Shown here: piece by piece, positions 29,932 through 64,000 of the stretch
Layout of the letters: each line of letters begins with the position of its first letter
Position numbering within the stretch: position 1 is the first letter of the stretch
NCBI GenBank assembly: GCA_965552055.1
Contig: CBEVQO010000007.1
Span: 41,005 to 105,004 of the forward strand
Length of the DNA stretch: 64,000 bases
From: an uncultured bacterium
GTDB lineage: Bacteria > Hydrothermota > UBA3073 > NMUJ01 > CBEVQO01
Direction of reading: 5' to 3'
Position numbers and translations under genes: made by a program
The notes under the pieces: generated by a model
Database searches by the model: none
Seen by the model: the letters and a program-made list of their open reading frames with translations, nothing else
Told to the model about the DNA's origin: nothing

Positions 29932-32900
29932 TATCTTACTATTATTATCTTATCGCAGTAATCAAAAGATTTTATTCTCACAAAATATACCCCAGATTTT
30001 AATTGTGCTTTTTCTCTAAAGTGATTCTTGCCTTCTTTTAATTTCATATAAAAAGCTTTTTGTAATCTACCTGCTACATCATAAATCTCAACTTTAACAT
30101 TTTGACTTTCCGGTGTCTCAAAATAAAAATTAAGGATACTTTTTGATGGATTTGGATATATGTGAATCCTTCTCAATTTTTCAACTTGCTCTTTTTCTTT
30201 AATGGTATCACCTATGAGATACATAAGTTTAACATCATCCACAAAAAATCCAGTACTTACTTCACTATCTCCATCTGCTACAAATCTAAATCTCAATTGC
30301 AAGGTTTCTCCTTCAAACTCACTTATATCATACTCCGCATAGCACCAGTCATGACCCATGGTAAGTGAATCAAGAGCACCACCTGTTCCTGTGTAATCAA
30401 GGGTTGCAAAAGGCAAAGAGTCATCCTTCACAAGTTCAACATACATTCCATCGCACCCATAAATCGGCACATCAAACTTGTACCAGAAACCAATTTTTGA
30501 ATCCTTTGTCACGATAAAAGAAGGAGATACAAGAGAGGCATCCATATTGTCTCTGTATTCCTGCGTTACTTCATCACCACAATAATAGCTGTAAGAACCT
30601 GAATGAGATGATAAATTTGTCCTGTGCCACAAACAATTTTTGCCATAAACCTTCCATTCAACAGTATCTTCAAAATCATAAACTTTTATCCTATCCCCAA
30701 CAAATATGTAAAAGGTAATTGTGTCAATTTCGCATCTTACAAAAGAATGCAAACGCCAGGGAGGAGAACCCGTTTTATCCACCCATACAGACAATGTGCA
30801 GATTTGATAAGGTAATAATTTTACGATTAAATCATGTGGCGAAACATTCGCATCGGATACACTTATTTCTAATGTGTCAAAAAGCGTATCAAGCCCTTTA
30901 TTGCTTATCACCACATATAAAGAGCCAGAATAATCAGGAGTGATTCTTTCATTCAGATAATCAACAAAATGCAAAATCGGTTTCTTACCCACATATTTCA
31001 ATACAAATTCTTGATTTAATTTATCAGAAGTCAACATCATCTTTATAAGATAAATCTTACCATTTTGAATTTGTGATAATAAAAATCTGATGGAATCTGT
31101 TTTCGATTGACCTGATGGCAGAATTCCTATTTCTCTCAAGGTATCCAGTAGAATAATTGAATCTGCATAAAAATGACATTTCACATTTCGCAAAGTGTCT
31201 CCTTCATTCGAAAGGTTAAAGCGTATTTTAAATGTATCCCCTTCTTCTATCACATAATTTAAAGACACAAAATTTACCTGTTTTATGTATATTTTCTTCT
31301 GACAGGGAATATAATTTCTCTTCAGACATGTGACTATCAGAGTACCCGGCGAATATGTTGTGAAACTGAAAACTCCTGAACCAGATAATGTATCAACGAT
31401 ATAAATTTCCGTATCCTTCAAAATACAAATTCTCACATTGTTTAAAGGCCTATTTTCCGAATCAGTCACCGCAATATTTAGAGTGATATCACCTTGCGGT
31501 ATTGTATCCTGTGTTATAATTTGCATCCCTTTTGGTTTTTCTGTCCACACTTTCATTGCCGGGTCGCCAAATAAATTTATCTGAAATTGATGCCACCTAT
31601 AAACATTCGAATCATGTGATAAAGGAACATAATAAGATTTGGCAAAAGATAGCACATCACCTATTCTTTCAACAGAATCTTTGAAAATTTCATAAAAAAT
31701 CCTTTTGTCAAACTTGTCAGAATATCCATAGCCGGGATTACCGGGAGAACCCCATCCATACCTTGAATTCGCAATAAAAGCAACAGCTCCGCCTTTACTT
31801 GTCTTTGTATAACATTCGGCAATAGAAACATAATCAAGCGCCCCAACCCAGCATCCAATCGACACCCACACAACAGGCATATCAGAATTTGTAAAAGATA
31901 AGGTATCTCCATTGAATAAATAATCTTCACCTATACACATTATATACCACCAGCCATGTCCATCGTGATTTACAAAATTCTTACCGGAATTTATAGATGA
32001 AAAGAAATGTGCAGAATCTTCATTACCATAAGATTGATATAGTTTATCAATCTCAAAATAAGGTGGTAAAATTTCACAAATCATATCTTTGCCTATCCCT
32101 GCATCGGTGTAAGGTTCATACCACAAAATTTCACCCAACATCAATGCTTTATTTTTTGAAGATTTGTGCGGATACTTTTCATATTTCAGGATTTTATTCA
32201 CAAAAGTAACAGCTTCCGAATAGTTCCTTACCGGAGCCCTTCCGATACTCAAATCAGGATACAAATCAACGCTATCTTCTACCTCACCAAAAACACCATC
32301 TCCATCTCTATCCCAATCGCCATCAAGGTCAGCATAGTAAAGGTCACAGGGAATATCATTTTCGTTTGGCATAATGCCTGCCTGACAATCAAAAGCATAA
32401 GCATACCTTACAGGGATAATGGGATGCGCACCACCCAGCAAAACATATTTTACACCGGAATCTTTAACTGCTTTTAAGTAATTCCTTATCTTTTCCTGCA
32501 AATCCCTTCCATGATAATTTTCCTCAATCCACTCAACGGTACGCAAAGCACAACGAAAACCCTCTTCCTCCCTCCACTTCAACAAAGGCAAAAAAGCAAA
32601 AGATAAACTATCACTCGTTATAATAAGATAATCAATCGAATTCAAAGTTTTATTTTTTGACTTTTTAGTCAAAATTTCGAATTTAAGGTCAGATATTTTT
32701 ATTAAGGTGGATTTTCTGGGGTTGTATTGCACAGGATACAGTTTCAGTAGCAGGTAATTCACATTTTTGATTTTTGCTTTCTCGTATTCGTAGATTTTCC
32801 CGGGATACAGGGTATCTTTTTCGTATATTTTTGCTTTTTTCACTTTTTTTGGTTTCAATTTTAAAATTACCTGTGGAGTTACGGGAGGAATTTCACCTTT

Positions 32901-33080
32901 TATTTTCTCTGTATCTGCTTTTATTTCTATTAAATTTATTTCGGTCAATTCTTCTTCTCCCAATTTTATCATTTTTATTACGACAGGAAGATTTGGATAG
33001 CCCGGTTTTGCTATCTCTTCTCCTTTTATATTTTTGCCAAAACTTATCTCGAGTATTTTAAAAATCAAAAAGGAAATCAT
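29931..33080 (-). CDS. C25 (gingipain-like) cysteine peptidase with T9SS-like C-terminal domain
   Basis: YVLLGG, DLYYADLDG, IGRAP, NHDGHG, IGCW, NSRYGW, LFGDP; tail IYPNP...IYDVAGR...SGVYFV. Confidence 0.88.
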   Translation of the reverse strand: MISFLIFKILEISFGKNIKGEEIAKPGYPNLPVVIKMIKLGEEELTEINLIEIKADTEKIKGEIPPVTPQVILKLKPKKVKKAKIYEKDTLYPGKIYEYEKAKIKNVNYLLLKLYPVQYNPRKSTLIKISDLKFEILTKKSKNKTLNSIDYLIITSDSLSFAFLPLLKWREEEGFRCALRTVEWIEENYHGRDLQEKIRNYLKAVKDSGVKYVLLGGAHPIIPVRYAYAFDCQAGIMPNENDIPCDLYYADLDGDWDRDGDGVFGEVEDSVDLYPDLSIGRAPVRNYSEAVTFVNKILKYEKYPHKSSKNKALMLGEILWYEPYTDAGIGKDMICEILPPYFEIDKLYQSYGNEDSAHFFSSINSGKNFVNHDGHGWWYIMCIGEDYLFNGDTLSFTNSDMPVVWVSIGCWVGALDYVSIAECYTKTSKGGAVAFIANSRYGWGSPGNPGYGYSDKFDKRIFYEIFKDSVERIGDVLSFAKSYYVPLSHDSNVYRWHQFQINLFGDPAMKVWTEKPKGMQIITQDTIPQGDITLNIAVTDSENRPLNNVRICILKDTEIYIVDTLSGSGVFSFTTYSPGTLIVTCLKRNYIPCQKKIYIKQVNFVSLNYVIEEGDTFKIRFNLSNEGDTLRNVKCHFYADSIILLDTLREIGILPSGQSKTDSIRFLLSQIQNGKIYLIKMMLTSDKLNQEFVLKYVGKKPILHFVDYLNERITPDYSGSLYVVISNKGLDTLFDTLEISVSDANVSPHDLIVKLLPYQICTLSVWVDKTGSPPWRLHSFVRCEIDTITFYIFVGDRIKVYDFEDTVEWKVYGKNCLWHRTNLSSHSGSYSYYCGDEVTQEYRDNMDASLVSPSFIVTKDSKIGFWYKFDVPIYGCDGMYVELVKDDSLPFATLDYTGTGGALDSLTMGHDWCYAEYDISEFEGETLQLRFRFVADGDSEVSTGFFVDDVKLMYLIGDTIKEKEQVEKLRRIHIYPNPSKSILNFYFETPESQNVKVEIYDVAGRLQKAFYMKLKEGKNHFREKAQLKSGVYFVRIKSFDYCDKIIIVR

Positions 33081-45210: not shown

Positions 45211-46554
45211 ATGGATACTTTAAAAGAAATATGGGATAAGACATTAAAAGTAATAAAAGAGAAGATGCGTGAAGAGACATTTAAATCCCTTTTCGCAGAA
45301 GAAACGATAGCACCGGTGCTACTAAGAATCGAAAATGGTAAAGCAATCGTTGGATTGCAACACAATTTCTTCTCTGATTTCTTTAAAAAGAACAAAATGG
45401 ACATTTTAATATCTGATGCAATATCTTCAGTAGTTGGTAAGAGGTTAGAAGTTGAATTTAAAGTTCATGAAGGAAAGAAAGTTGTTCCCAGATTACCTGA
45501 GAAAGATGATGGTAAAAAGGAGACAAGTTCTTCTTTCCTGAAAAGATTCACTTTTGACAATTTTGTGGTAGGTGAGGGCAATCGCCTTGCTTATAGTGCT
45601 GCTTTCGCAGTATCTGAGAAGCCGGGTGAAATCTACAATCCGCTTTTTATTTACGGAGGAGTCGGGCTCGGGAAAACTCATTTGCTCGGTGCAATTTATA
45701 ACCACATTAAGAAAAACAGACCCGATATTAAAGTAATGTATGTAACATGTGAAAAATTCCTTGACGATTTAATCGATGCAATACAGAAAAGACAGCAATT
45801 GATATTTAAAAGAAAATACAGAAAGAATGACATTTTACTCATAGATGATGTCCATCTTGTTAAAGATAGGTCAGGATTACAGGAAGAGCTATTCCACATT
45901 TTTAATGAATTTCATTCCGTTGGTAAGCAAATTGTTTTCACATCTGACAGACCTCCTGTTGAGATACCAAATCTCACGGAGAGAATAAGGTCGCGCTTCC
46001 TCGCTGGACTCGTTTGTGATATCCAGCCACCCGATTTCGAAACAAGAGTCGCAATCCTGAAGAAAAAATGCGAATTATTTAAAGTAAAAGTTGACGATAA
46101 CATACTGAAAAAAATAGCAGAAAGAGTTAAAGGAAATGTTAGATTATTAGAATGTGCATTGCAAAAGATAAAAGCAATACAAAGTCATATCGGAAGAACC
46201 ATCACCGAAGAAATACTTGACCTCATATTAAAAGATATAGCCCCGGGTAGAAAAACAGTAAGTCCAGAAAGAATAATAGAAGAAGTTTCAAAATTTTACA
46301 GAATACCCGTTACCGATATAAAAAGCAGAAAAAGGAATCAAATAGTGAGTCAGGCTCGTCAAATTGCAGTTTACTTAATGAGAGAATTGCTCGAATTATC
46401 TTTCCCTGTAATCGGAAGAATAATCGGAAGAGACCATTCAACAATAATCCATGATTATAAAAAAATAGAAAAATTAAAAGAGGAAGACCCCGATGTAAAG
46501 GAAGTTTTAAAATTGTTAAAAGAAAAACTCGGTTATGAACAGGAAAAATTTTAA
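45211..46554 (+). CDS. dnaA: chromosomal replication initiator DnaA
   Basis: FTFDNFVVG, YNPLFIYGGVGLGKTHL, LIDDV, SDRPP, RDHSTII. Confidence 0.98.
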   Translation: MDTLKEIWDKTLKVIKEKMREETFKSLFAEETIAPVLLRIENGKAIVGLQHNFFSDFFKKNKMDILISDAISSVVGKRLEVEFKVHEGKKVVPRLPEKDDGKKETSSSFLKRFTFDNFVVGEGNRLAYSAAFAVSEKPGEIYNPLFIYGGVGLGKTHLLGAIYNHIKKNRPDIKVMYVTCEKFLDDLIDAIQKRQQLIFKRKYRKNDILLIDDVHLVKDRSGLQEELFHIFNEFHSVGKQIVFTSDRPPVEIPNLTERIRSRFLAGLVCDIQPPDFETRVAILKKKCELFKVKVDDNILKKIAERVKGNVRLLECALQKIKAIQSHIGRTITEEILDLILKDIAPGRKTVSPERIIEEVSKFYRIPVTDIKSRKRNQIVSQARQIAVYLMRELLELSFPVIGRIIGRDHSTIIHDYKKIEKLKEEDPDVKEVLKLLKEKLGYEQEKF

Positions 46555-46575
46555 AAGATATAACAAAAATAAGCA

Positions 46576-46607
46576 TTATCAACATTATCAACAGATTATC
46601 ATCAACA
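46576..46607. promoter_or_regulatory. DnaA-box-like cluster between dnaA and dnaN (oriC part 2)
   Basis: Tandem TTATCAACA 46576-46584 and 46585-46593, TCATCAACA 46599-46607. Confidence 0.7.
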
Positions 46608-46620
46608 AAAAGGAGGTAAC

Positions 46621-47709
46621 ATGAAAGTAGATTTTAGAAGAAAAGATTTAATAGATGCATTAGCTGTGGTTATGCCGGTAGTCCCGAGTAAAAGTCCGCT
46701 TCCTGCTCTTTCGAGTATTCTTATCAGAACACATGAAGATGAAGTTGAGATAATAGGAACAGACCTTGATATATGCGTATCTGCAAAAGTAAAAGCGACT
46801 GTCGAAGAAAAAGGAGAAATAACACTTGAAGCAAAAAAATTTTATGCTTTATGCAGACAGATAAAAGAAGATATAATATCTCTGGAGGGCACAACTACGC
46901 CTGTTATTCGTGCAGGAACAGGTACTTACGAAATACCGGGTGCACCTGTTGAAGATTTCCCAGAGCTAATACTTATTGAAAATCCGATTGGCAGTTTTGA
47001 AACAGAAGCCGATATTTTGAGAAGAAGTTCACAGAAAACGAGTTTCGCAGCAGCTAAAGATTCTACTGAATCTATCTTTAAAGCAATTTTAATGCATATC
47101 AAAGGAAAAGAACTGAGATTCGTAGCGACCGATGCTCATAAACTTGCTCTAATAAAAAAGTACGAAATGGATTTTGAAAGCGAACAAAAATTTCTTTTGC
47201 CAAATAAATTCTGGAAAGAAGTTACTAAATTAACAGGAGATGTAAGTGTCTTTTATGACGATACTAAAATATCATTTGCAACAGAAGATTGTGCTATTAC
47301 AACAAGATTGGTTGAGGGTGAATATCCTGATTACGAATCCGTAATCCCTGTTGATAACGATAAAGTTTTAACGGTATCCCGTCCATTGCTTGAAAGTGCG
47401 TTAAGAAGGGGGATGATTTTTGCACACGAAGAATCGAAGATGTGCATTTTATCGCTTTCTTCCGATGTTTTAAAAGTATCCGTACAGGGAGAAGGAAGTG
47501 CGGTTGAGGAAATACCCTGCGAATATCAGGGAGAAGAAATGGAAATAGGATATAACATAAGCTATCTTCTTGAAATTTTAACTCACATAGATTCCGAAGA
47601 AGTGCAATTTTTCCTGAAAGACCCGATATCCGCTGCTATTATCAAACCCGTCTATCAAAGAGAAGCAGAAGAATTAATGTATTTGTTGATGCCGATTAGA
47701 TTAGAATAA
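46621..47709 (+). CDS. dnaN: DNA polymerase III beta clamp
   Basis: GTDLD, VATDAHKL, RLVEGEYPDY, LLMPIRL; AGGAGG SD. Confidence 0.97.
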   Translation: MKVDFRRKDLIDALAVVMPVVPSKSPLPALSSILIRTHEDEVEIIGTDLDICVSAKVKATVEEKGEITLEAKKFYALCRQIKEDIISLEGTTTPVIRAGTGTYEIPGAPVEDFPELILIENPIGSFETEADILRRSSQKTSFAAAKDSTESIFKAILMHIKGKELRFVATDAHKLALIKKYEMDFESEQKFLLPNKFWKEVTKLTGDVSVFYDDTKISFATEDCAITTRLVEGEYPDYESVIPVDNDKVLTVSRPLLESALRRGMIFAHEESKMCILSLSSDVLKVSVQGEGSAVEEIPCEYQGEEMEIGYNISYLLEILTHIDSEEVQFFLKDPISAAIIKPVYQREAEELMYLLMPIRLE

Positions 47710-49954: not shown

Positions 49955-51214
49955 ATGGCTGTAAATCTGCCATATAATTTGTCGAAAGAAAGTGTAAAAT
50001 TTGAAATAGAAGAAAAATATGTAAAAGAAATAATCGAACCCAGAAAGCTTAATGAGATAAATTTGAAGGAAGTTTTGATACAAAAATTGTCAATTTTAAA
50101 TGAAGATAAAAGATTAAAAAAAGCAAAAAAAATAGCAATTCTTGTCGATGATTACACCAGACCCACACCCACAAGGGAAATTTTACCGTTACTTATAGAA
50201 AAGATTGAAGGGATAAACAAAAATTGTGAAATAAAGATAATATATGCGGAAGGGACTCATCCTGTTACAAAGATGGAGCAAATTTATCAGAAGATACCTG
50301 AAGATATTTATGAAAAATATGATGTCGTGATTCATGATGCTTATGATGATAGCAAAAATGTATTCGTGGGAATCACAAAGTTTGGTACTCCTTTATTTTT
50401 AAATAAGGAAGCAGTTTCTACGGATTACAGGATAATAATAAATTCTATTTTTCCAACAGAAATAACAGGATTTACTGGTTCGAGCAAAATGATAGTACCC
50501 GGTATTGCAAGTGCATTTACAACGGACAGAAATCATGCATTGATGATAGCGAGGGGAATTGATGCTGGAAGTTTTGATAATGTTGTTCGTCAAGATATGG
50601 ATGATGCAGCAGAAATTTTTGGAGTGCATCTTGATATAGAGGTGATAATGAATCCAGATTACACTATTCATGAGATTTTGATAGGTGATTTTAAAGAAGT
50701 TTATAGAAAAGGATGTGAAATTTCAAAAGAAATTTTCATGCCTTATGTAAGAGGCAAATCTGATTTTGTGATAGTGAGTCCGGGTGGTGTTGAGGATGTT
50801 GACCTCTGCCAATCATTTAAGGCACTTGCATCTGCTTATAGAATATGCGATGGTGATATAATTTTGGTAGCAGCTTGTCCACTTGGTACTCAATGGCCAG
50901 AATTTGCAGATGTCTTGCACTATGTGAGAAGGAAATGCAAAAAAAGAGAAGATGTTTTGAAATTGCTCGGTGAAGAAGAATTTGAATCAATTTCCGTAGT
51001 TCTCTTATACAGATACTATGATTCACTTGTTGAATTAAAGCGTAAAATTTATCTTTATTCCGATGGGATAACAGAAAGAGAAGCACAATCTTTTGGCTTT
51101 GTAAAAATAAAAAATGTTGAAGAAGGAATAGAAATGTGCCTGAAGAAAAAAAGCGATGCTAAATTTTACATAATCCCTCACGCAGCTTACACTTTTCCCG
51201 TAATTAAAGCTTGA
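49955..51214 (+). CDS. LarA family nickel-pincer-dependent racemase/epimerase homolog
   Basis: DDYTRPTP, EGTH, IHD, GFTGSSKMIVPGIA, NH, DVDLCQSFKAL. Confidence 0.82.
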   Translation: MAVNLPYNLSKESVKFEIEEKYVKEIIEPRKLNEINLKEVLIQKLSILNEDKRLKKAKKIAILVDDYTRPTPTREILPLLIEKIEGINKNCEIKIIYAEGTHPVTKMEQIYQKIPEDIYEKYDVVIHDAYDDSKNVFVGITKFGTPLFLNKEAVSTDYRIIINSIFPTEITGFTGSSKMIVPGIASAFTTDRNHALMIARGIDAGSFDNVVRQDMDDAAEIFGVHLDIEVIMNPDYTIHEILIGDFKEVYRKGCEISKEIFMPYVRGKSDFVIVSPGGVEDVDLCQSFKALASAYRICDGDIILVAACPLGTQWPEFADVLHYVRRKCKKREDVLKLLGEEEFESISVVLLYRYYDSLVELKRKIYLYSDGITEREAQSFGFVKIKNVEEGIEMCLKKKSDAKFYIIPHAAYTFPVIKA

Positions 51215-51242
51215 CATTGTAGAGAAGTTTATAAAATGATGG

Positions 51243-52085
51243 GTGATAAAATTAATGAAATCCTTTTATCATTCTTTCTTTTATAAGATACATGTGCAAT
51301 TTATTCGCATTCTTTCCAATTTTATAATGTTTTTGCTATCCCCAAAAAGGGTAAGGATACTGGATGAGGAATGGGATTATTTGATAATTCTTGATGCTTG
51401 CAGATATGATTTTTTTAAAAAATACAATTTCATCAAGGGCAAACTTGAAAGGAAAGTGAGTATGGGTTCATCTACTCCCGAATGGTTCAGGAAGAATTTT
51501 GAGAGAAAAGTAGATGATGTGGTATATGTTACTGCGAATCCGTATATTTCGAGATGGATTGAAGAAGGGAAGCTCCTGCAAAGATTTTTTTATATGGAGC
51601 ATTTATGGCAATATGAGTGGGATGAAGAGTTAAATTCTGTGCATCCTGACCGTGTTGTTGAGAATGTTCTCAGATTGAAAGAGAAGTATCCCGATAAAAG
51701 AATGATAATTCATTTTTTACAGCCTCATACACCTTTTATAGGCGAGACAAGGATACCACCTGATGGCAGGGTATCTGTAGAAAGAAGGAGAAAAGCATAT
51801 AAAGATAATCTAATCTTAGTTTTAAAAAGTGTGAAAAAACTCATTGATAATCTTTGTGGCAAAATAATAGTGACAGCAGATCATGGAGAATGTCTGGGAG
51901 AATGGGGTCTGTGGAAGCATCCCGATAATGTACATGTAAAGGAGCTAATCGTGATACCATGGCTCATTATAAATAAAGGAAAAAGGAAAATAGTCCCAAA
52001 ATCAATAGAACCCCCGAAAGAGAAAAAAATAGATGAAGGGATTCTCACGAAAAGATTAAAATCATTGGGATATTATCCTGACTGA
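51243..52085 (+). CDS. sulfatase/alkaline-phosphatase superfamily protein
   Basis: LDACRYD, GSSTPEW, HFLQPHTPF, TADHGE, RLKSLGY. Confidence 0.82.
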   Translation: MIKLMKSFYHSFFYKIHVQFIRILSNFIMFLLSPKRVRILDEEWDYLIILDACRYDFFKKYNFIKGKLERKVSMGSSTPEWFRKNFERKVDDVVYVTANPYISRWIEEGKLLQRFFYMEHLWQYEWDEELNSVHPDRVVENVLRLKEKYPDKRMIIHFLQPHTPFIGETRIPPDGRVSVERRRKAYKDNLILVLKSVKKLIDNLCGKIIVTADHGECLGEWGLWKHPDNVHVKELIVIPWLIINKGKRKIVPKSIEPPKEKKIDEGILTKRLKSLGYYPD

Positions 52086-53368
52086 TGATTGCACTTTTTG
52101 TAATTGCTGGAGTGATTGCCGGTGCTATATTCTCACTTCTACCTGCTTTACATATTTATAACATTGTTGCGATTATTCTTTTGATGAAGTTTCCGCCGCT
52201 ATGCGTTGCCTCTTTTTGCCTTGGACTCATTGTAGGCTTTTCTGTCGTTAATACGATACCTTCGGTATTTCTTGGTGCACCTGATGAGAGTGCGGTATTT
52301 CTTGTACTCCCGGGGCAAAAATATCTTTTGCTCGGTAGGGGATATGAAGCATGTGTATTGAGCGGGATAGGCAGTATTCTTGCGATTTTTTCTCTAATAC
52401 TTTTGATTCCATTATTTCAAAAATTTTTACCCTTTTTAAAAATTTTACTCGCAAGGCATTATTACTGGCTTCTTGGTTCTATAATTTGTTATATTTTGAT
52501 GTCAGAATGGCCAAAAGGAGGCGATAGGGGTACTCCCTTTTATCGCTTTTTAGATGGCTGGCGTACACTTTCTTACGGACTTTTGACCTTCTTTTTATCT
52601 GGTTTGCTTGGTATTATTTTGTTTTATAAACCTTTAATACCTGTTGAGCGTGGTTTTCAAAACTTAATGCCCGTTTTTGTTGGTTTGTTTGCGATTCCAT
52701 GGGTGCTAATGAATATAATTTCTGGCACAAAGGTTCCTGAGCAAAATATAAGCAGTAGTGTAAATGTTCGTCCTGTTCATATTTTTCATGGCTGGTTCGC
52801 GGGAGCTATTGGAGGATTATTGGCTGCTTTCCTTCCTGCTATCACAGGTGGAGTGGGGGGTTTACTTGCTGGTCATGCCACTGCTCAGCGTGATGACCGT
52901 GTTTTTATAATTTCTCAGGGAGCATCAAAAGTTTTCTATTATGTTGGTGGTTACTTATTTTATTTAATCCCTGGAGTGAATTTGAAAAGAGGAGGTCTTG
53001 CCTGGATGGTTGGCACAGTTTATTCTCCTGCTTCTTACAAGGAATTCTGGCAAATGATGATAGGCTTATGCATTGGTGGTCTACTTGCATTCTTTCTTTT
53101 AATTTACTTTGCGAAAATTTTTGCGAGATACATTTATCATTTTTCATACAAAATGATTTCAATAATTGCACTTTGCATAATAATTTTACTTGTAGTTTTG
53201 CTGACAGGGATAAAGGGTTTACTGATAGCTGCTACTGCAACAGGTATAGGTTTGATTCCTGTTTTATATGGTTCGAGAAGGATGAATTGTCTAGGAGTAA
53301 TACTTTTGCCCATCACCTTGAATATGGCGGGATTAGGAGATGATATTGCAAAATTTTTAGGTTTTTAA
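52085..53368 (+). CDS. tripartite tricarboxylate transporter TctA-like permease (archaeal type)
   Basis: LLPALHIYN, IPSVFLGAPDE, VLPGQKYLL.GRG, GLFAIP; multi-pass. Confidence 0.8.
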   Translation: MIALFVIAGVIAGAIFSLLPALHIYNIVAIILLMKFPPLCVASFCLGLIVGFSVVNTIPSVFLGAPDESAVFLVLPGQKYLLLGRGYEACVLSGIGSILAIFSLILLIPLFQKFLPFLKILLARHYYWLLGSIICYILMSEWPKGGDRGTPFYRFLDGWRTLSYGLLTFFLSGLLGIILFYKPLIPVERGFQNLMPVFVGLFAIPWVLMNIISGTKVPEQNISSSVNVRPVHIFHGWFAGAIGGLLAAFLPAITGGVGGLLAGHATAQRDDRVFIISQGASKVFYYVGGYLFYLIPGVNLKRGGLAWMVGTVYSPASYKEFWQMMIGLCIGGLLAFFLLIYFAKIFARYIYHFSYKMISIIALCIIILLVVLLTGIKGLLIAATATGIGLIPVLYGSRRMNCLGVILLPITLNMAGLGDDIAKFLGF

Positions 53369-53378
53369 AGGGGGGATT

Positions 53379-55415
53379 ATGTTTGTGTTACTCTGTATAA
53401 TGTACATGGAGACGAAATATGCGACAGGGTGCTTGGTGGAAGACCCCACGACCATTCCATGGCTTCATCGTGCTGAAATAAAAGCGAAGAAAATCTTGCC
53501 ATCGAAGGTTGATTTATCGAAATTCATGCCTCCTGTTGGGAATCAGGATGGTCAGGGTTCCTGTGTTGCATGGGCTGTTGGCTATTATCATAAGACATTT
53601 CAGGAATGGCTCGAACATAGATGGGATGTTACTTCGCCTTATCATCAATTCAGTCCTGCTTTTATTTACAATCAGATAAATGGTGGTGTGGATGGTGGCT
53701 CTTACATTTCCGATGCCTTGAAATGCCTTTGTGACCTTGGATGCGCAAATTTGGTGCTATCACCTTATGATCCTTATGATTCAACTACATGGCCAAGTGA
53801 AGAAGCATATGACTCTGCGATAAAGTATCGGAGTGACTCTGCATATTATTTGTATTGCGGGGATACTGCTGGAATAAGGATGATAAAGCAATTGCTTTAT
53901 GATAGTATAACTGTTATAATTGCGATTGCTGTTTATTACAATTATCTTTACATTGAAAATTATGATACGATGTATTGTGTTGCTGATTCTGCTGGTGAGC
54001 TTTATGGCTGGCATGCTCAATGTATAGTCGGTTATGATGATAACAAGCCAACGCATGATGGTGTGGGAGCTTTCAGGGTAGTCAATTCATGGGGGACTGA
54101 CTGGGGCAACAACGGGTATTACTGGATGTCATATGAAGCTGTAATGAGACCTTCTTTCTGCTGGTGTTATGCTTACTATTCTACCGATAAAATAAATTAC
54201 TCTCCCAGGGTTAAATCACGCATAAGGATAATACATCCTTCGAGGTATACCGTTGGGATAAGTCTGGGAGCAGGAGAGTCCACTTCTCCTGTTTGGGAGA
54301 AGAACTATTTCGACTGGTATATGCCGAGGCGAGCTGACTGGCCATTTCCCTCGCATAAAATAGTCCTTGATTTAACTGATGGTACAGATTTTATTTCGCG
54401 CGGAACCAATATATTTCTCCGATGCGTTGATGAAGTTATTGATGCATATACGGGCTCGGTTGATACATTTCTTGTGCAACATCTTGAATGGGCGGTAACA
54501 GTGGCATCACAGCAGACACCTGCTCCGATAACCGATGGCGGAACTGCTTATGTGAATGTAATATTGCCAGGCACCGCATACTACTCAATATCAGGATATG
54601 TAAAGAGATGGGATGATACTCCTGCAGACTCAATTATGATGGTGCTTACAGGATATGTTAATGAAACATTATATACAGATAGCAGTGGATATTATGAGTT
54701 TGACAGCCTTTTATCTGGTAAAAATTATATTTTAACTCCCTATAAAGAGAGCTGGATATTTGACCCGGATTGCAGGGAATATAATACTTTAAGCGCAAGT
54801 CAAACAGAGCAAAATTTCACAGGATATACTGATATTTATGAGCCAAATAATACAATTGCACAGGCTTATGGACCGCTTTTGAAAGATACTTTATACTACT
54901 CTTTCATCTGGTCTGCTGATGATACAGACTGGTATTACTTTGAATTACCTGAGAGTGTTTTCTATTCAATTGATGTTATTTTAACCAGTTTACCAGCTGA
55001 CTATGACTTATTTTTGTATGACGAAAATGGTCAAATGATAGCAAGTTCGGAGAATTCTGGCTTTCATTACGAAAGAATAGAAATGGATACATTAACTGGC
55101 AAGAAATACATTAAAATAATCGGCAAAAATGGTGCTTATCATCAAAAAGATACATATTTATTAAAAGTAAGCTGGTCTTTCCTTGCATTAAACGAAGAAA
55201 TAATCAAACACAAAGTCTTAATTTATCCCAATCCAGCGCATGGAGAAATAAAAATTTTCGCATCACCTGGAATGCGATATGAAATTTATGATATTAGCGG
55301 TAGATTAATAGAAAAAGGCTTTTCTAAAATAAATGCGAGAAATTTATCTCCCGGGATTTACTTTATAAGAATCGGTAATTCAAAAAGATTGCATAAAATA
55401 ATATTGCTTAAATGA
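53379..55415 (+). CDS. C1 papain-like cysteine peptidase with PPC-like and T9SS-like C-terminal domains
   Basis: QDGQGSCVAWA, GWHA, NSWGTDWG; YEPNN...DYDLFLY; IYPNP...IYDISGR...PGIYF. Confidence 0.88.
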   Translation: MFVLLCIMYMETKYATGCLVEDPTTIPWLHRAEIKAKKILPSKVDLSKFMPPVGNQDGQGSCVAWAVGYYHKTFQEWLEHRWDVTSPYHQFSPAFIYNQINGGVDGGSYISDALKCLCDLGCANLVLSPYDPYDSTTWPSEEAYDSAIKYRSDSAYYLYCGDTAGIRMIKQLLYDSITVIIAIAVYYNYLYIENYDTMYCVADSAGELYGWHAQCIVGYDDNKPTHDGVGAFRVVNSWGTDWGNNGYYWMSYEAVMRPSFCWCYAYYSTDKINYSPRVKSRIRIIHPSRYTVGISLGAGESTSPVWEKNYFDWYMPRRADWPFPSHKIVLDLTDGTDFISRGTNIFLRCVDEVIDAYTGSVDTFLVQHLEWAVTVASQQTPAPITDGGTAYVNVILPGTAYYSISGYVKRWDDTPADSIMMVLTGYVNETLYTDSSGYYEFDSLLSGKNYILTPYKESWIFDPDCREYNTLSASQTEQNFTGYTDIYEPNNTIAQAYGPLLKDTLYYSFIWSADDTDWYYFELPESVFYSIDVILTSLPADYDLFLYDENGQMIASSENSGFHYERIEMDTLTGKKYIKIIGKNGAYHQKDTYLLKVSWSFLALNEEIIKHKVLIYPNPAHGEIKIFASPGMRYEIYDISGRLIEKGFSKINARNLSPGIYFIRIGNSKRLHKIILLK

Positions 55416-56695: not shown

Positions 56696-56869
56696 TTTTA
56701 ATGCGAGCGTAAGCGAGCTTATTACATATGGGTTGATATGTCAGCCCATTACGGGTTTTTGATTTACTCGGGTGTTTTTGCGCTTTATCTTCTGATTGCG
56801 TTTAAATAAGGGTAAGGAGTGGGCTGACTTAATCGGGAAGGTGGGGACAGCGGAGGAGGGGCTAAAAAT
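56696..56869 (+). repeat. intergenic repeat element copy 2 with ~100-nt hairpin-bounded insert
   Basis: Blocks A (56696-56735) and B (56840-56869); GTCAGCCCATT 56740-56750 pairs with AGTGGGCTGAC 56818-56828. Confidence 0.88.
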
Positions 56870-56916
56870 TTTTGAAAAAATTGTTGACAGAATGATAATA
56901 TGCTTAAATGTATAAG

Positions 56917-58005
56917 ATGAATTTGTTATTTTTGCTTGTTTTTATTCCGCAGAATGTTGTTGCGGAAGATTATCCCAACGATGCTGGCAATGCCATAATA
57001 ATTCGCTGGTCTTTTCCCGATAGTTTACTGCCCTATGTTCGTGCGTTTCAGATCTGGCGCAAAGAAGAAGGGGGTGAATTCAGGTTAAGGGGTGTTTCCA
57101 TTACTAATTCTTTTCTCGATGATTCAACCGAAGATGGCAAGCCATATTATTATAAAGTTGCTACTGTTTTAAAAGATGGTAGAATATTTGAGTCGGATAT
57201 TTCGGGTCCTGCTGTTTCGAGTGCCCAGTGGTTTCATACCGGGAGATGGAATGCTTTAATTCTGGGAGTTATATTCAGTTTTCTTATTCTGTGGTATATA
57301 AGGCGTGCGAAGAGGGGTGAGAAATTGTTTTTGCGAAGGATACCGGGTCTTGATGCTGTTGATGAAGCTGTTGGGCGTTCAACCGAGATGGGCAGACCTG
57401 TTTTGTTTGTCCTTGGGCTTGGCTATATAAGTGATATTCCGACGATCGCTGGGCTATCTATTTTGAGCAGAGTTGCGAAGAAGGCAGCAGAATATGAGAC
57501 ACCTGTACTGGTTCCTTGCTATGACCCTGTTGTTATGACAGCTGCTCAGGAGACAGTTAAGCAGGCGTATGCTGAAGCAGGCAGACCCGATTTATACAAT
57601 GAGAAAAACATTTTCTATCTGACATCCGATCAATTTGGCTATGCTGCCGGTGTTGATGGTATTATGTTAAGAGAGCGTCCTGGTGCTGTATTCCTGCAGG
57701 GATATTTCTTTGCAGAGTCATTAATACTTGCGGAAACGGGCTATTCGATAGGGGCGATTCAGATTGCCGGGACATCGGCGATTACTCAGCTGCCTTTCTT
57801 TATTGCAGCATGTGATTACACATTGATAGGTGAGGAGATGTTTGTTGCATCGACCTATCTCTCCCGAGAACCTGTAATGCTTGGCAGTATAAAGGGCGAG
57901 GATTTTGCCAAAATAATTCTTATGATACTGATAGTGATAGGCGTTATATGTGCATGCATAGGTGGTAAATTTCTAAAATTTATAGAATTTTTCAGCAGTG
58001 CGTAG
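56917..58005 (+). CDS. FN3-like domain plus DUF6754-like membrane protein
   Basis: DYPNDAG...W...YYYKV FN3 pattern; RRIPGLDAVDEAVGRSTEMGRP, AESLILAE, LIGEEMF; start 56917 preferred over 56908. Confidence 0.75.
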   Translation: MNLLFLLVFIPQNVVAEDYPNDAGNAIIIRWSFPDSLLPYVRAFQIWRKEEGGEFRLRGVSITNSFLDDSTEDGKPYYYKVATVLKDGRIFESDISGPAVSSAQWFHTGRWNALILGVIFSFLILWYIRRAKRGEKLFLRRIPGLDAVDEAVGRSTEMGRPVLFVLGLGYISDIPTIAGLSILSRVAKKAAEYETPVLVPCYDPVVMTAAQETVKQAYAEAGRPDLYNEKNIFYLTSDQFGYAAGVDGIMLRERPGAVFLQGYFFAESLILAETGYSIGAIQIAGTSAITQLPFFIAACDYTLIGEEMFVASTYLSREPVMLGSIKGEDFAKIILMILIVIGVICACIGGKFLKFIEFFSSA

Positions 58006-58630
58006 GGAAGTACCTTTAGTAATAACTTTTGTTACGGGTATCGTAATAATAATAGGACTATTTGTTCCCCATAAACCTTTTGGAGAGATTCAGCAAACTT
58101 TTTTAAAGTGGTATGTTATAATTGCAGGGTTTACTCTTTTACTTGGTATTGACAGTTTAGTAATTACTCACTGGGGTAAAATAAAGCGTCGTCAACCTGG
58201 TTTTGGCTATAGTGTGGTTCTTATTGCGAGTTTAGCATTTACTTTGATACTCGGGATTTATTCGATAATAAAATATGGTTCTGCTTTTGATGTTAGGGCT
58301 CCCTTTATGTATCTTTACATGCATGTGATTTTGCCTTTGTCTGCTACTATGTTTTCTTTGCTTGCGTTTTTCATAGCGTCAGCTGCTTACAGGGCTTTCA
58401 GGGCTCGAAATGTTGATGCTGCTCTTCTTCTTGTTGCAGGTATACTTGTTATGCTTGGCAGGGTGCCTCTTGGCAGTATGCTATATTCTAAAATGCCACA
58501 AATAGCGGACTGGATAATGGATGTGCCTCAGATGGCAGCAAAAAGGGGCTTACTCATAGGAATAGCTCTTGGTCAAATAGCGATGTCTTTAAGAGTAATA
58601 TTGGGGATTGAGAGAACATATTTGAGATGA
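57998..58630 (+). CDS. conserved multi-pass membrane protein
   Basis: PLSATMFSLLAFFIASAAYRAFRAR, LRVILGIERTYL; overlaps both neighbours. Confidence 0.8.
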   Translation: MRREVPLVITFVTGIVIIIGLFVPHKPFGEIQQTFLKWYVIIAGFTLLLGIDSLVITHWGKIKRRQPGFGYSVVLIASLAFTLILGIYSIIKYGSAFDVRAPFMYLYMHVILPLSATMFSLLAFFIASAAYRAFRARNVDAALLLVAGILVMLGRVPLGSMLYSKMPQIADWIMDVPQMAAKRGLLIGIALGQIAMSLRVILGIERTYLR

Positions 58631-59427
58631 GGGGCTTAGAGAGGAGAATAATTTATCTTCTGATAGCGCTTTCGGTTATTATTCCTTTTCTTTTCAAGAT
58701 AAAGACAAAGGTGGAGATAAGTCCTCCTGTAATGTCGGCGTATAATACGATTGAAAGCTTAAAAGAGGGTACACCTGTTCTTATTTCGATTGATTATGAT
58801 CCTGCGAGCATGCCGGAGCTTCAACCGATGTTACTTGCTATCTTAAGGCATTGTGTAAAGAAGAAGTTAAAAATAATTTTGATGGCTCACTGGCCACTTG
58901 GGGTGCCACTTGGTCAGGAAGCGATTGAGAAGATAGCAAAAGAATATGGCTTAAAATATGGTGAGGACTATGTAAATTTAGGTTACAGACCGGGAGGAGC
59001 TGGCGTCATAATATCTATGGGTAGGGAGATAAGAGATATATTTGATTGTGATTTCAAAGGGACTCCTGTTGATTCACTTCCATTGATGCGTAATGTTCAC
59101 AATTACGATGATATAGGTGTTGTGATAGGTCTTGAGGCGGGCTCTGTTGGTGACTGGTGGGCTCAAAATTTAGGACCTCGATTTGGTGCAAAATTAATAC
59201 TTGGTTCCACTGCTGTTGTTACTCCTGACCTTTATCCTTATCTTGCTTCAGGGCAATGTCAGGGCTTGATAGGTGGATTAAGGGGTGCTGCAGAATATGA
59301 AAATCTGGTTGGACATCCATCAGTTGCTACAATAGGCATGATACCACAATCAGCAGCCCATGCTCTTATAATCATCTTCATAATAATTGGGAATATAATT
59401 TACATTTTGCAGAGGAGAAGAAAATGA
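58627..59427 (+). CDS. conserved membrane-anchored alpha/beta protein
   Basis: TM - DYDPASMPEL, YGEDYVNLGY, YPYLASGQ, GLRGAAEYE - TM. Confidence 0.8.
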   Translation: MRGLERRIIYLLIALSVIIPFLFKIKTKVEISPPVMSAYNTIESLKEGTPVLISIDYDPASMPELQPMLLAILRHCVKKKLKIILMAHWPLGVPLGQEAIEKIAKEYGLKYGEDYVNLGYRPGGAGVIISMGREIRDIFDCDFKGTPVDSLPLMRNVHNYDDIGVVIGLEAGSVGDWWAQNLGPRFGAKLILGSTAVVTPDLYPYLASGQCQGLIGGLRGAAEYENLVGHPSVATIGMIPQSAAHALIIIFIIIGNIIYILQRRRK

Positions 59428-60032
59428 TGGAAACTCTGGGTGTATGGCTTGCAGCCGGGTTTACTCTTTGCATTTTCTCTTTCCTTTATAAAGACAATCC
59501 ATTTTACAAACTTGCCGAACATATCTATGTAGGAGCTTCTGCTGCTTATATGGTGATATTTGTGTGGAGTTTCGATGTAAAGCCGATGCTCATAGACCGA
59601 TTTATTGTTAATGGTAAGGTAAACTGGTCATTACTCTTTCCTGCGTTCTTCAGTGCCTTGATGTTATGTCGTTTTATCCCGCGTATTGCATGGCTTTCTC
59701 GCTGGGCAATAGCTTTTACAGTGGGAATAGGTGCGGGGATAGGATTTACTATGGGTTTACATGGCTATATCTTACCTCAATTAAAGGCAACGATGGTGCC
59801 ACTTGTAAATGTAAATAATATCATTATAGTGATTGGTGTTCTCTCTGTTTTAATGTATTTCTATTTCTCAATAGAGCATAAGGGTCCTGTCAAATATGTT
59901 TCTCGTCTTGGCAGGATTTTTATAATGATAGCATTTGGAGCATCATTTGGTTATACTGTTATGGCAAGAATATCCCTTCTTATCGGCAGAATACACTTCC
60001 TCTTATCCGACTGGCTTAAGATAATAAAATAG
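59424..60032 (+). CDS. conserved multi-pass membrane protein
   Basis: FSFLYKDNPFYKLAEHIYVG, FGASFGYTVMARISLLIGR. Confidence 0.8.
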   Translation: MMETLGVWLAAGFTLCIFSFLYKDNPFYKLAEHIYVGASAAYMVIFVWSFDVKPMLIDRFIVNGKVNWSLLFPAFFSALMLCRFIPRIAWLSRWAIAFTVGIGAGIGFTMGLHGYILPQLKATMVPLVNVNNIIIVIGVLSVLMYFYFSIEHKGPVKYVSRLGRIFIMIAFGASFGYTVMARISLLIGRIHFLLSDWLKIIK

Positions 60033-60041
60033 GAGGGGGCT

Positions 60042-63000
60042 ATGTTAATATTAGCCCTAATTTTTGCATATTCAAAAGGAGACACGATTTCATTATGGAT
60101 GTATGACCCTGGATTTTATTCCAGATATTACCTCACAAAAGCAGCTTGTAGAAAGGTGGGAGCTGATTTTTACATTTTCACACAGGAAGAGACATTGAGG
60201 ATAAAAGAATTGTGCTGGAATAGAATAACGGGTGCTATTTTCATGGTAAAAGGTCATTATGATTCGCTTTACAGGACAACCGATTATGGTTGCAACTGGA
60301 CTGCTCTTGATAAGGAAAATGTCATGGATATGGATATAGCTCCTTTGTCTTCTACTTCTTCATTATTAATCGTGGGTTGTTATAATGATAATGTTTACTG
60401 GACTACGGATGATGGAGCGAGCTGGAAGTATAAAAATATAGGTGATAAAAAGATAAGGAGAGTAGCAGTTTCTCCTTATACTGTTTCTGGGACATATTAT
60501 TTTTACTATGCAACGGATACAGCCGTATATAGTAAGGATAATTCTGTCTTTACTGCATGGCAACATCTGCCTGGCTCAGATACTCTTGGGACGATAACAT
60601 GTATGAGAGGTCATCTCACAAATTATGGCAAATTATTTGTTGGCACAAAAGAAAAAGGTGTCTATAAATGGGTGGCTTCCGATAATCGGTGGTACAGTAT
60701 TAACAATGGCTTATCGAATCTCAATATAAAAGATATAGCAATAGATTTTCAGGATTCACTAAAACTCTACCTTATAACAGGTGACGGCTTATATGTTAGC
60801 TTTGATGAAGGTTCAAACTGGAATAAAATAAACACTCCTTTTGATACTTTGATAAATTGTGTTTATGTTGATAAAAATTCGAATATTTTCCTTGGTACAG
60901 AAAAAGGGCTTTATAAATCGTCGGATGGTGGTATCACATGGGTGTTGCTCGATTCAGGCATGGGTGATTGGGGATATTTACCTTATGCTCATAATACATT
61001 CAGGGTAGTGGCAGAGAATGATACCATTATCTGTGGTACCTATCAGGGTGTCTTTATAAGCTTCGATGGAATAAATTTTGAAGAGCGCAATAAAGATTTA
61101 CTTATAAGTTACATAACACCCTCTGATGTTGATACTATTTCCAAATATTATCAAGAGGTTGCAACGATTTTAAGAAATGAATTTGGTAATGAACCCGATG
61201 TTGATAATGATGGTAAAGTGATTGTTTATCTTTCTAACATTAGAAAGGGACGGTGGTGGGGGTATTCTGTTTATGTTGATGGTTATTTTGACCCTGTAAA
61301 TGAGTATCCTCAAAATGTGGTTGATACACTTTATGGTGAAGAATTTAAGTCGAATTTCTGTGAAATTATTTATTACAATGCGAAAAATGGTTTTATTGAC
61401 CCTCAAAAAGTTAAAGGTGCTTTATCTACTGCTTTCTGTAAGCTGATACACTGGGGCAAAGACCCAGATGAATTCCCTGCAATAGGGCTACGATGCGGAT
61501 ATGTTTGTGATTTCCTTATAGAAGGAATAGCAGGATACGCTAAATACATAGTTAATGTAGGTAAAGGTAATACAGACCCCGCAACTTATAGTTTGCCACT
61601 TAATAACGATTTAGTATACTGGGGAGATGACTATCTTGCTGACGAAATTAACTATGCGTACGAGTTTATGATGTTTATTTATGAGTATTATGGAGATACT
61701 GTTATTAAAAAGATAATGGAAAATGATTTGAACGACAAAGAAAGTATAGAAGATGTGTTATCTTTACCGTTTTCCAAAATATTTTCTAAATTCTCATCAG
61801 TGATAGGGATAGAGACAGAAGGGATGGGAGATACTTTATGTTTGAAATATCTTAACATTTCTCCTAGTTTTCTGAATATAATAGATTACTATAAAGAAAA
61901 GATTATGCCTTGGTCTATTCGTAGATATGTGATGAGGCGTGGAGAAGCTAACTTTGGTGATAGTGTTTATTTTGATGCAGATGATTATGGTGTTGTAAAA
62001 GTATGGGTGTTGAAAGACCCTGCACCTTATACTGCTGGTTTCCCATCGGACACACTAGGAGTGGTTAAATGCTTTGCTCTTTCGCTTGATAATGAGAACT
62101 TTGGCAAGTTTGAAGTTACATTGGAAGATTCACAGGTTGGGCTGGTAATTGCTAACCCTTCGGATACTTTTTATGATTTCTGGATTGACCCGAATTCGGA
62201 TACTCTCTTGCCTCCGCATTCTCTTGAATGGGTAAATGAATGGGAAGCAGATAGTGTTGTGCTGAAATGGTCGCCACCTGTTGTTACAAAAGAAGCGAAA
62301 ATCACAGGATATAATGTTTACAGAAGAAAAGAGAGTGAAACAACTTACACAAAAATAGCAGGTGTGATAACCCCGGAATATATTGATAAAAATGTTTTGA
62401 ATGAAACAACTTATTACTATGTGGTTACTGCACTTTATAATCGTGGTGAAAGCGGTTATTCTGAACCTCTCAAAGTGACGCCAACGCATTATCCGCCACC
62501 GGGTGATTTCAGAGCATCGGGAGGCTATGGAAAAGTATTCTTAACATGGAGTTTGCCGAGGGGTGTTTCTATGAGCAAGTTTATAAAGAGTATGAAAATG
62601 AAAGATAAAGGTTCTCTTTATTTCAGATTGTACAGGTCAAAGACATCTGGCGGACCTTATGTAGTTATTGCTCCTGAAATTTATACTTTATTTTACATAG
62701 ATACGAGTGTGATGCTTGACAGCACCTATTACTATGTGATAAAAGCAATTTATAGCACAGGTGAAAGCCCTTACAGTGATGAGTGTTCTACGACTGTATC
62801 TTCTTCAGGTGGAGCATCACTGGGTTATAGATTTATTGAATCAGGAGAATTATGGACAGCTATAAGTAATTTTGGTAGCTATGGACATCCTGGGGCAGGT
62901 GGTTTGGGTGTGCCCTCATATAATTGGCCCGGTTCTTATCAAGGCGAGCCGACCTATAATTATTATCTTTATGAAGGAGGGTTATGGCTTGGTGCAAAAG

Positions 63001-64000
63001 TTAGCGGAGAATATTATGTGTCAACTGCATTTTATGATTGGGAATTAGCTCCGACTGCTGATTGCAAATGGGAGCTTTCTGAAGATTCTCTATGGTTTTC
63101 TATCACTGTAAAATATTGCGATTATGACCCGGATTATAATTCAAATAGGGGGCTTGGTTTTACAATAATTGAAAAGATGTTGCATTCTTTGCATCCTGCT
63201 TTTGATGATTTCTATGCATTTGAGTATAAAATAATTTACGATAAGAATAAAGCGCTGATATCGAATCCGCCGGATACTCTTACATTTTACATTGGGTGGT
63301 GGATGGATGCAGATATATCGGGTGCAGAACCTTATCGTGAGTATATAGATGACTGGGTTTGCTGGGATGGGTGGACAAATCACGAATGGGATGATTTACC
63401 TCATGGTCCAAAGGATTCTTTAACTATTTTATATGACCATGTGTTGAATAAACCTGATGGTGTCCTTGATAATTATGTTATCTGGGGGGATGATGAATGG
63501 GAGATGTGTTTATCCCGTCCTGATACTATAATGAGGGATGGAGAGATTTTAGCAGTTCAATTAATACCAAGGGATATGGCATACATTTATGATGGCGATA
63601 ATCCATCAATAGAGGGTAATGATGCAGGGTATTACGGTGCATCCGCAGGATATTTCTTTGGCAAATTACTATATGCTCCACCTTCTCCATCCGATAACAT
63701 CTGGGTAGATGAACAGGGAAGACAATGTCGTTTAATAAGACCAGTATCTTTTGCATGGTGGAACTGGGAAGAAGACCCTGGTAATGATGAAGAGCAGTAT
63801 AAATATATGACGGGGACTCATCCAGCGATGCATGGTTATCATTTCAAGCCTCATCCTCAAGACCTCGGTGCGTCAGAATTTGATTACAGATTTCTCGTGA
63901 GTTACGGACCTTACACAATATCTTCAGGTGATACACTTGAATTTGTCTATGTTCTTGGAGTGGGTCAGGGTTTAAATGGTGGGATTGATGATTATTGGGA
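60042..64000 (+). CDS. large secreted protein (3' truncated, >1300 aa): BNR beta-propeller, inactive M30-like metallopeptidase, two FN3, uncharacterised C-domain
   Basis: AGGAGG SD, MLILALIFAY; Asp-boxes RTTDYGCNW, TTDDGASW, SFDEGSNW, SSDGGITW; FGNEPDVDNDGK; GYNVYR/YYYVV/GESGYS; absent from ORF track because no stop in window. Confidence 0.85.
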   Translation, partial: MLILALIFAYSKGDTISLWMYDPGFYSRYYLTKAACRKVGADFYIFTQEETLRIKELCWNRITGAIFMVKGHYDSLYRTTDYGCNWTALDKENVMDMDIAPLSSTSSLLIVGCYNDNVYWTTDDGASWKYKNIGDKKIRRVAVSPYTVSGTYYFYYATDTAVYSKDNSVFTAWQHLPGSDTLGTITCMRGHLTNYGKLFVGTKEKGVYKWVASDNRWYSINNGLSNLNIKDIAIDFQDSLKLYLITGDGLYVSFDEGSNWNKINTPFDTLINCVYVDKNSNIFLGTEKGLYKSSDGGITWVLLDSGMGDWGYLPYAHNTFRVVAENDTIICGTYQGVFISFDGINFEERNKDLLISYITPSDVDTISKYYQEVATILRNEFGNEPDVDNDGKVIVYLSNIRKGRWWGYSVYVDGYFDPVNEYPQNVVDTLYGEEFKSNFCEIIYYNAKNGFIDPQKVKGALSTAFCKLIHWGKDPDEFPAIGLRCGYVCDFLIEGIAGYAKYIVNVGKGNTDPATYSLPLNNDLVYWGDDYLADEINYAYEFMMFIYEYYGDTVIKKIMENDLNDKESIEDVLSLPFSKIFSKFSSVIGIETEGMGDTLCLKYLNISPSFLNIIDYYKEKIMPWSIRRYVMRRGEANFGDSVYFDADDYGVVKVWVLKDPAPYTAGFPSDTLGVVKCFALSLDNENFGKFEVTLEDSQVGLVIANPSDTFYDFWIDPNSDTLLPPHSLEWVNEWEADSVVLKWSPPVVTKEAKITGYNVYRRKESETTYTKIAGVITPEYIDKNVLNETTYYYVVTALYNRGESGYSEPLKVTPTHYPPPGDFRASGGYGKVFLTWSLPRGVSMSKFIKSMKMKDKGSLYFRLYRSKTSGGPYVVIAPEIYTLFYIDTSVMLDSTYYYVIKAIYSTGESPYSDECSTTVSSSGGASLGYRFIESGELWTAISNFGSYGHPGAGGLGVPSYNWPGSYQGEPTYNYYLYEGGLWLGAKVSGEYYVSTAFYDWELAPTADCKWELSEDSLWFSITVKYCDYDPDYNSNRGLGFTIIEKMLHSLHPAFDDFYAFEYKIIYDKNKALISNPPDTLTFYIGWWMDADISGAEPYREYIDDWVCWDGWTNHEWDDLPHGPKDSLTILYDHVLNKPDGVLDNYVIWGDDEWEMCLSRPDTIMRDGEILAVQLIPRDMAYIYDGDNPSIEGNDAGYYGASAGYFFGKLLYAPPSPSDNIWVDEQGRQCRLIRPVSFAWWNWEEDPGNDEEQYKYMTGTHPAMHGYHFKPHPQDLGASEFDYRFLVSYGPYTISSGDTLEFVYVLGVGQGLNGGIDDYW

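Follow-up and report, generated by a model that had tools for sequence, protein, structure and literature searches.

The 64,000-nucleotide (nt) stretch analysed here, the window, forms the end of a contig (C7; CBEVQO010000007.1) in the genome assembly of an uncultured bacterium (2.23 Mb, 97% complete), whose nearest relatives carry the WOR-3 label. Near its 3' end lie four genes, here called A, B, C and D, which constitute a conserved, unstudied membrane unit, the ABCD cassette, and which are followed by a large open reading frame (ORF), gene E. The features of this region are as follows (aa, amino acids):

56743..56757, + strand: terminator-like hairpin (weak signal) behind the upstream Wzi-like gene, within the 212-nt gap 5' of the cassette
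56872..56901, + strand: sigma-70-like promoter candidates, unproven, immediately 5' of gene A
56908..58005, + strand: subunit A, DUF6754 (PF20539), 365 aa
57998..58630, + strand: subunit B, no family, 210 aa
58627..59427, + strand: subunit C, 266 aa
59424..60032, + strand: subunit D, no family, 202 aa
60042..64000 (open at the window end), + strand: gene E, leading 1,319 of 1,460 aa

The coordinates confirm the four overlapping genes on the plus strand, and the 9-nt step to the large ORF, from which the original prediction, an earlier reading of the same DNA, had started. The A/B, B/C and C/D overlaps measure 8, 4 and 4 nt, and the gap between D and E holds a Shine-Dalgarno-like purine run. 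The single promoter proposed at the same time is not borne out: sigma-70-like sites are present, but their number (11 against 10.9 expected from shuffles) is that of chance. Terminator-like hairpin sites (4 seen, 3.1 expected) are likewise a weak signal.

The arrangement of the cassette is strongly conserved. Neighbourhood and phylogenetic profiling, the check originally suggested, finds A, B, C and D together and in this order in 167 of the 177 related loci that could be tested, from WOR-3, Bacillota, Chloroflexota and metagenomes, a count restricted to loci with enough downstream room and drawn from sets that overlap and share kin and some duplicates. The order ABCD is found in all 51 metagenome loci, all 41 Bacillota loci and 10 of 11 GTDB loci. 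In WOR-3, A is followed by B, C and D in 65 of 74 loci; four more read AABCD and five contain a lone A. The lone A genes without B, C and D are those of L108, L109, L110, L129 and L088, and two A genes stand ahead of one BCD in L094, L122, L127 and L078. The pairwise identities of the four subunits co-vary across 45 sampled cassettes (Spearman 0.81-0.88), and do so more weakly within the 12 paralogues of one genome (Spearman 0.07-0.50). DUF6754, the family of subunit A, occurs in 135 of 151 WOR-3 genomes with 1-6 matches each, in 14 of 201 genomes of a Bacillota sample with up to 12 cassettes, and in 42 of 151 genomes of a Chloroflexota sample, always as a single copy (42/42), while the family of subunit C comprises 5,457 clusters at 50% identity. 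These counts and the fixed order bear out the expectation that the quartet would recur, uncharacterised, in WOR-3 and Chloroflexota. Neither a publication on the system nor the term DUF6754 was found in a literature search that had most subscription papers and supplements outside its reach.

Subunit A is a full member of Pfam DUF6754 (395 bits against a cut-off of 27, covering profile positions 2-252 of 257), a family without function whose definition excludes B, C and D as well as the link to the ATPase and partner protein described below. For B, C and D no Pfam or NCBIfam family scores above its cut-off. The subunit layout of the original prediction holds in that A and C each place an α/β domain between two transmembrane (TM) helices and B and D are multi-TM proteins. 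The FN3 domain that it assigned to A fares less well, being unmatched by Pfam in the window copy and only weakly matched by fn3 in 3 of 7 homologues tested. Subunit A is predicted to consist of a short signal peptide, an FN3-like external domain, TM1, a Rossmann-type domain on the cytoplasmic side, and TM2. The AlphaFold models of A (modelled without FN3) and C, with predicted local distance difference test (pLDDT) values of 93.6 and 94.3, show a TM helix, a helix, six β-α units and a TM helix in identical order. Basic residues lie after the first TM helix in A and at both flanks in C, a pattern from which the A domain is predicted to be inside and the C domain outside; the SH3b or CARDB inserts of some C homologues agree with an external location. 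A is the most conserved subunit and its inner domain the most conserved part, which would fit a docking site for a common ATPase, and C is the most divergent subunit overall. Each of B and D contains about six hydrophobic segments. B is predicted to form about six TM helices in an N-in/C-in topology, with invariant R132 and R183, and D about six TM helices with the N-terminus out. Among further C homologues, P0132 and P0263 bear a tandem duplicated external domain or a HEAT-repeat insert, and those of four Chloroflexota loci (L010, L012, L014, L016) are 1,700-1,930 aa in length; their N-terminus is a very long low-complexity stretch rich in acidic residues and proline, and they contain an SH3b insert.

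The 2+2 layout had been read as two pseudo-symmetric pairs, and profile comparisons lend this some support for A and C and not for B and D. The profiles of A and C align in register, with E 0.025 when 85 rows are used and E 0.001 (probability 22%) for deeper alignments, and their score of 31.4 is above that of each of 40 block shuffles and of the two reversals (maximum 29.6), suggesting, at the level of sequence, a common ancestry that is not proven. The signal between B and D is weak and off-register (score 23.0, E 0.01). Rotating D extends the alignment to 125 columns and does not raise the score; a circular permutation is possible, and the symmetry of this pair is not established. With Foldseek, A has no match below E 0.001, and C has three, all generic. 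In structural comparisons MT0777 (PDB 1kjn) ranks first for C (Z 10.2, root-mean-square deviation 3.0, 137 aligned) and is tied with others for A (Z 9.1, root-mean-square deviation 3.9, 136 aligned). Searches of PDB sequences with profiles of A, B, C, D and the ATPase and with the partner sequence returned nothing convincing, none of the B and D matches falling below E 0.02, and the ESM Atlas matches to B and C are unnamed clusters only.

The absence of a Walker motif, noted originally, is correct for the four genes, but the system has an ATPase encoded elsewhere in the genome, on contig C4, with a partner protein on contig C2:

C4:33399-35186: ATPase, long GlmL/MutL form (PF13941), PF13941 match 439 bits
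C2:398082-399209: partner protein, unlinked to the window cassette

The source genome contains two cassettes, one ATPase and one partner, spread over four loci and all retained; the second cassette, on C4, is 43-51% identical to that of the window and has other neighbours. The association is visible in related genomes. In Chloroflexota loci D is often followed directly by a PF13941 gene and a 370-aa partner, and several loci of WOR-3 and Bacillota have the ATPase and partner genes before or after a cassette. The same 151 WOR-3 genomes contain DUF6754 in 135 cases and PF13941 in 134, with 133 having both and 15, all of genus g20, having neither; the three discordant genomes comprise two with DUF6754 only and one with PF13941 only. 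In Bacillota, DUF6754 (14/201) and the partner (13/201) coincide in 12 genomes, and in Chloroflexota PF13941 is present in 41 of the 42 DUF6754 genomes.

The ATPase shares with GlmL/MutL (PF13941, NF040745, TIGR01319) and Or-4 (NF040744) an actin-fold core with intact motifs. Three motifs, known in the actin/Hsp70 family as phosphate-1, phosphate-2 and adenosine, are present in the source genome's own ATPase and, of 33 long WOR-3 copies inspected, in 32; the ATP-binding motifs are also intact in most Bacillota copies; identity across most WOR-3 copies is ~66-79%. Unlike GlmL/MutL (~470 aa), the protein has ~595 aa with an extra C-terminal domain, is associated with a membrane cassette and a partner protein, and occurs in a genome in which no glutamate mutase E subunit was found. 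Its scores stay below the NCBIfam cut-offs of GlmL (243 against 475), Or-4 (227 against 600) and TIGR01319 (176 against 204), and for comparison a genuine short GlmL encoded next to a mutase scores above its cut-off. The partner contains a lipoyl-like barrel in which no lysine is conserved, making lipoylation unlikely.

Some neighbours of these genes may be recorded here. A lipoate-ligase-like gene (LplA-B_cat; G000:C4:32643-33392, L048:400-1149) follows the ATPase gene, and similar genes lie near cassettes, often directly after D, or near the ATPase in 18 other loci from WOR-3 and metagenomes; this proximity may reflect either ancestral synteny or a real link. Directly 3' of the partner gene (C2:399223-400172, L306) are two stand-alone cyclic-nucleotide-binding proteins, followed by a class III-like aminotransferase. 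The Bacillota genomes G151 and G285 (L286, L247, L259) combine many cassettes with several ATPase-partner pairs and also have longer partners whose barrel domain is duplicated.

Evidence on the substrate comes from the distribution of known peptide importers and from gene neighbours. That the genus lacking the system would have a complementary peptide importer was predicted before the count was made. An Opp/Dpp/Yej-type permease is found in 14 of 15 g20 genomes and in 5 of 136 other WOR-3 genomes; the corresponding figures are 13/15 and 4/136 for the Opp ATPase tail (PF08352, above cut-off) and 6/15 and 5/136 for PF19300. OPT occurs in 40 of the 151 WOR-3 genomes and POT in none above cut-off, so that 92 of 135 DUF6754 carriers are without Opp permease, OPT or POT, and in the source genome none of the three was found. 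Family-5 solute-binding proteins are present in 83 of 151 WOR-3 genomes, and the copy of the source genome adjoins a sensor-like gene and no permease; such proteins are of little use as a marker of Opp, which was therefore counted through its permease and ATPase tail. Many WOR-3 family-5 domains lie in frames of 1,030-1,140 aa, in genomes without an Opp permease, and are probably fused sensors with no part in transport. WOR-3 is reported to rank among the phyla richest in peptidases (PMC4411801).

In the Bacillota genomes with multiple cassettes, peptidases and amidohydrolases make up 30 of the 145 nearest ORFs and 13 of 148 distal ones (Fisher p 0.005), the distal count being based on a wider family list; with the narrow list and one threshold the numbers are 28 near and 7 far (p 0.0001). 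The families are Amidohydro_3, M81/MlrC, M20, beta-lactamase-like, amidase, C26, TldD/PmbA, DUF885 and carbon-nitrogen hydrolase. Such neighbours occur in 16 of 37 Bacillota regions, and 25 of the 30 are on the cassette strand. By eye, 29 of 30 are without a signal peptide, meaning that their substrates would need to be imported.

These observations are best accounted for by ATP-driven import of peptides or related amides, with exchangeable ABCD cassettes served by one common actin-fold ATPase, a proposal to which we give an even chance. It draws on gene order, co-occurrence, motifs, copy ratio, the distribution relative to Opp and the hydrolase neighbours, which are observed, and on predicted folds and orientation; the physical complex, coupling, direction and substrate are what we infer from these. 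ABCD would be one inner-membrane cassette that imports peptides or other amide-linked amino-acid compounds, with B and D as the predicted membrane core, the Rossmann-type domain of C predicted outside and the similar domain of A inside. Secreted peptidases and TonB-dependent receptors would deliver the substrate to the periplasm, where C, together with the FN3 of A, could capture it. The ATPase on C4, with the partner on C2, would power the window cassette and be shared with the second cassette on C4; it would dock on A, and the hydrolysis of ATP would drive the substrate through between B and D. Cassette duplication would widen the substrate range, much as energy-coupling factor (ECF) modules serve several S components. 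Subunit A may be exchangeable on its own, and in Chloroflexota the system may have taken on a structural role.

In its proposed logic the system resembles group II ECF transporters and the Opp/Dpp/Yej importers, which likewise combine a common ATPase module with several membrane cassettes and an external binding face, and the distribution of Opp is complementary to it in WOR-3. Unlike ATP-binding cassette (ABC) and ECF transporters, it has no ABC ATPase, A-D give no CbiQ or BPD_transp_1 match above cut-off in Pfam or NCBIfam, and the binding-like domain is an integral part of a two-helix membrane subunit and has a mirror counterpart on the inside. To our knowledge, no solute transporter uses an actin/Hsp70-fold ATPase as its drive. 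It is plausible, though we put it at somewhat under an even chance, that the cassette represents a new class of primary active transporter, a heterotetramer with mirror-image Rossmann domains on its two faces, driven by an actin/Hsp70-fold ATPase and not by an ABC, P-type or rotary motor, which serves as the main peptide importer of anaerobes that degrade proteins, WOR-3 among them, and is replaced by Opp where lost. The cassette is near universal in WOR-3, a phylum reported as peptidase-rich and mostly without Opp, OPT and POT in the genomes counted here. If correct, the proposal would explain peptide uptake by sediment and vent bacteria, correct the label "glutamate mutase L" on many genes, and open a six-gene system to expression and assay.

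Several observations weigh against this proposal. The neighbours of WOR-3 cassettes are mostly housekeeping genes, and fold searches with A and C return only generic Rossmann matches, tied at Z of about 9-10. In Chloroflexota PF13941 is more widespread than DUF6754 (84/151 against 42/151), and the degenerate motifs of the ATPase, the single copy and the up to ~1,500 extra low-complexity residues of C fit a scaffold better than a pump. The anticorrelation with Opp in g20 amounts to one loss event; moreover, OPT is found in 0 of 15 g20 genomes and in 5 of 5 sister genera, so that the gain of Opp may replace OPT instead. A permease of the CstA family, which might take peptides up, is encoded in the source genome, and the system and Opp occur together in 5 WOR-3 genomes and in the Bacillota genome G151 (L256). 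The list of hydrolase families was compiled after the near set had been seen, the thresholds were 1e-8 for near and 1e-12 for far ORFs (28 near ORFs remain at 1e-12), a size limit removed 10 of the 155 near ORFs, and 148 of 212 far ORFs were sampled. All hydrolase positives come from 7 genomes, and the ATPase-linked cassettes showed no hydrolase neighbours.

Uptake, possibly of peptides, had already been one of the roles in the original prediction, with ion coupling as its drive. Peptide uptake remains the best guess; ion coupling gives way before the almost perfect co-occurrence of ATPase and partner with the cassette. An importer driven by an ion gradient, with ATPase and partner merely regulating or assembling it, is nevertheless the alternative with some weight, unlikely as it is. 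Charged or polar residues occur in or near the membrane segments (R132, R183 and H58 in B; E32, R93 and Q119 in D; D228 in A), and an inverted arrangement such as that of A and C is reminiscent of secondary carriers. The RCK-gated channels KtrAB, TrkAH and MthK also place Rossmann-type domains beside the membrane, and potassium-channel RCK domains appear in the group of tied fold matches, at a level (Z 8.3-9.3) shared with dozens of unrelated Rossmann folds; there is no TrkA_N or TrkH Pfam match and no pore-forming K+ channel family in B or D. Against ion coupling stand the joint retention and joint loss of ATPase and cassette across three phyla and the ~66-79% identity and intact motifs of most WOR-3 ATPase copies; moreover, hydropathy places no invariant acidic residue in the middle of a B or D helix. 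Also unlikely is a complex without transport, either a trans-membrane sensor or an envelope scaffold, in which C senses or binds the wall outside and A relays to the actin-fold protein inside. The Chloroflexota features given above, including the acidic low-complexity N-terminus and SH3b on C, and the two cyclic-nucleotide-binding proteins after the partner gene speak for it; yet two six-helix subunits put more mass in the membrane than a relay would need, up to 12 divergent cassettes per genome adjoin catabolic hydrolases, and g20, which has Opp, can dispense with the system.

The remaining alternatives are much less probable. Export or assembly of surface proteins such as E, one of the roles originally suggested, seems improbable. 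The position of E, 9 nt 3' of D, invites it, as do the 7 of 60 WOR-3 regions with a TonB-dependent receptor or an ExbBD-TonB cluster downstream on the same strand (named by eye), a pattern that fits an uptake route at least as well. But no homologue of either half of E occurs in 156 other loci (the sole match, L138, is 100% identical to the window), the middle domain of E is near-unique, and E bears a type IX secretion system (T9SS)-type tail of its own. The second cassette of the source genome has no E-like neighbour, and Bacillota and Chloroflexota carry the module with no such cargo genes among the cassette neighbours scanned or read. The predicted link between the cassette and a giant secreted protein is confined to the source genome. 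Reactivation of a B12 mutase by the ATPase, with the cassette serving B12 or redox metabolism, is very improbable. The 439-bit PF13941 match and the lipoate-ligase-like gene near cassette or ATPase in 19 loci point in this direction, and one report (PMC4682846) describes MutL/GlmL as a chaperone that helps to reactivate glutamate mutase. Set against this, glutamate mutase E was not found in the 97%-complete source genome, the partner barrel has no conserved lysine, and A-D contain no invariant cofactor-binding cysteines or histidines. With the ATPase far below all three NCBIfam cut-offs as well, mutase reactivation is largely refuted.

Gene E is a genome-specific passenger outside the conserved system. 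It continues on contig C8 through a 55-nt overlap, and the whole protein (P0121) has 1,460 aa, arranged as a β-propeller, a degenerate zinc-peptidase-like domain, two FN3 domains and, beyond the window, a T9SS-type sorting domain at its end. In the middle domain the HEXXH ligands are absent, both histidines and the glutamate being gone relative to P0122, which retains the motif; this domain has one relative among 5.8 billion proteins of comparable length, and that relative has kept the zinc ligands. One E domain is 46% identical to a protein of a TonB-receptor locus on C4, and the two halves of E match two separate genes of this TonB-receptor/PorV locus (46% and 23%), which makes E a chimera. 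The locus (G000:C4:119347-133273, L305) encodes a TonB-dependent receptor, a 750-aa protein, a PorV/PorQ-family gene and T9SS-tail proteins, and is the source of both halves; its 1,098-aa gene also seems, by eye, to be without the HEXXH ligands.

The two secreted peptidases noted in the original prediction are present in the window, both with T9SS tails:

29931-33080: C25 peptidase with T9SS tail
53379-55415: C1 peptidase with T9SS tail

Upstream of the C1 peptidase (window 49955-53368) are lactate racemase-like and sulfatase-like genes and an archaeal-looking TctA-family permease gene. The genes dnaA and dnaN lie at window 45211-47709, ~10 kb 5' of the cassette, placing it close to the likely replication origin.

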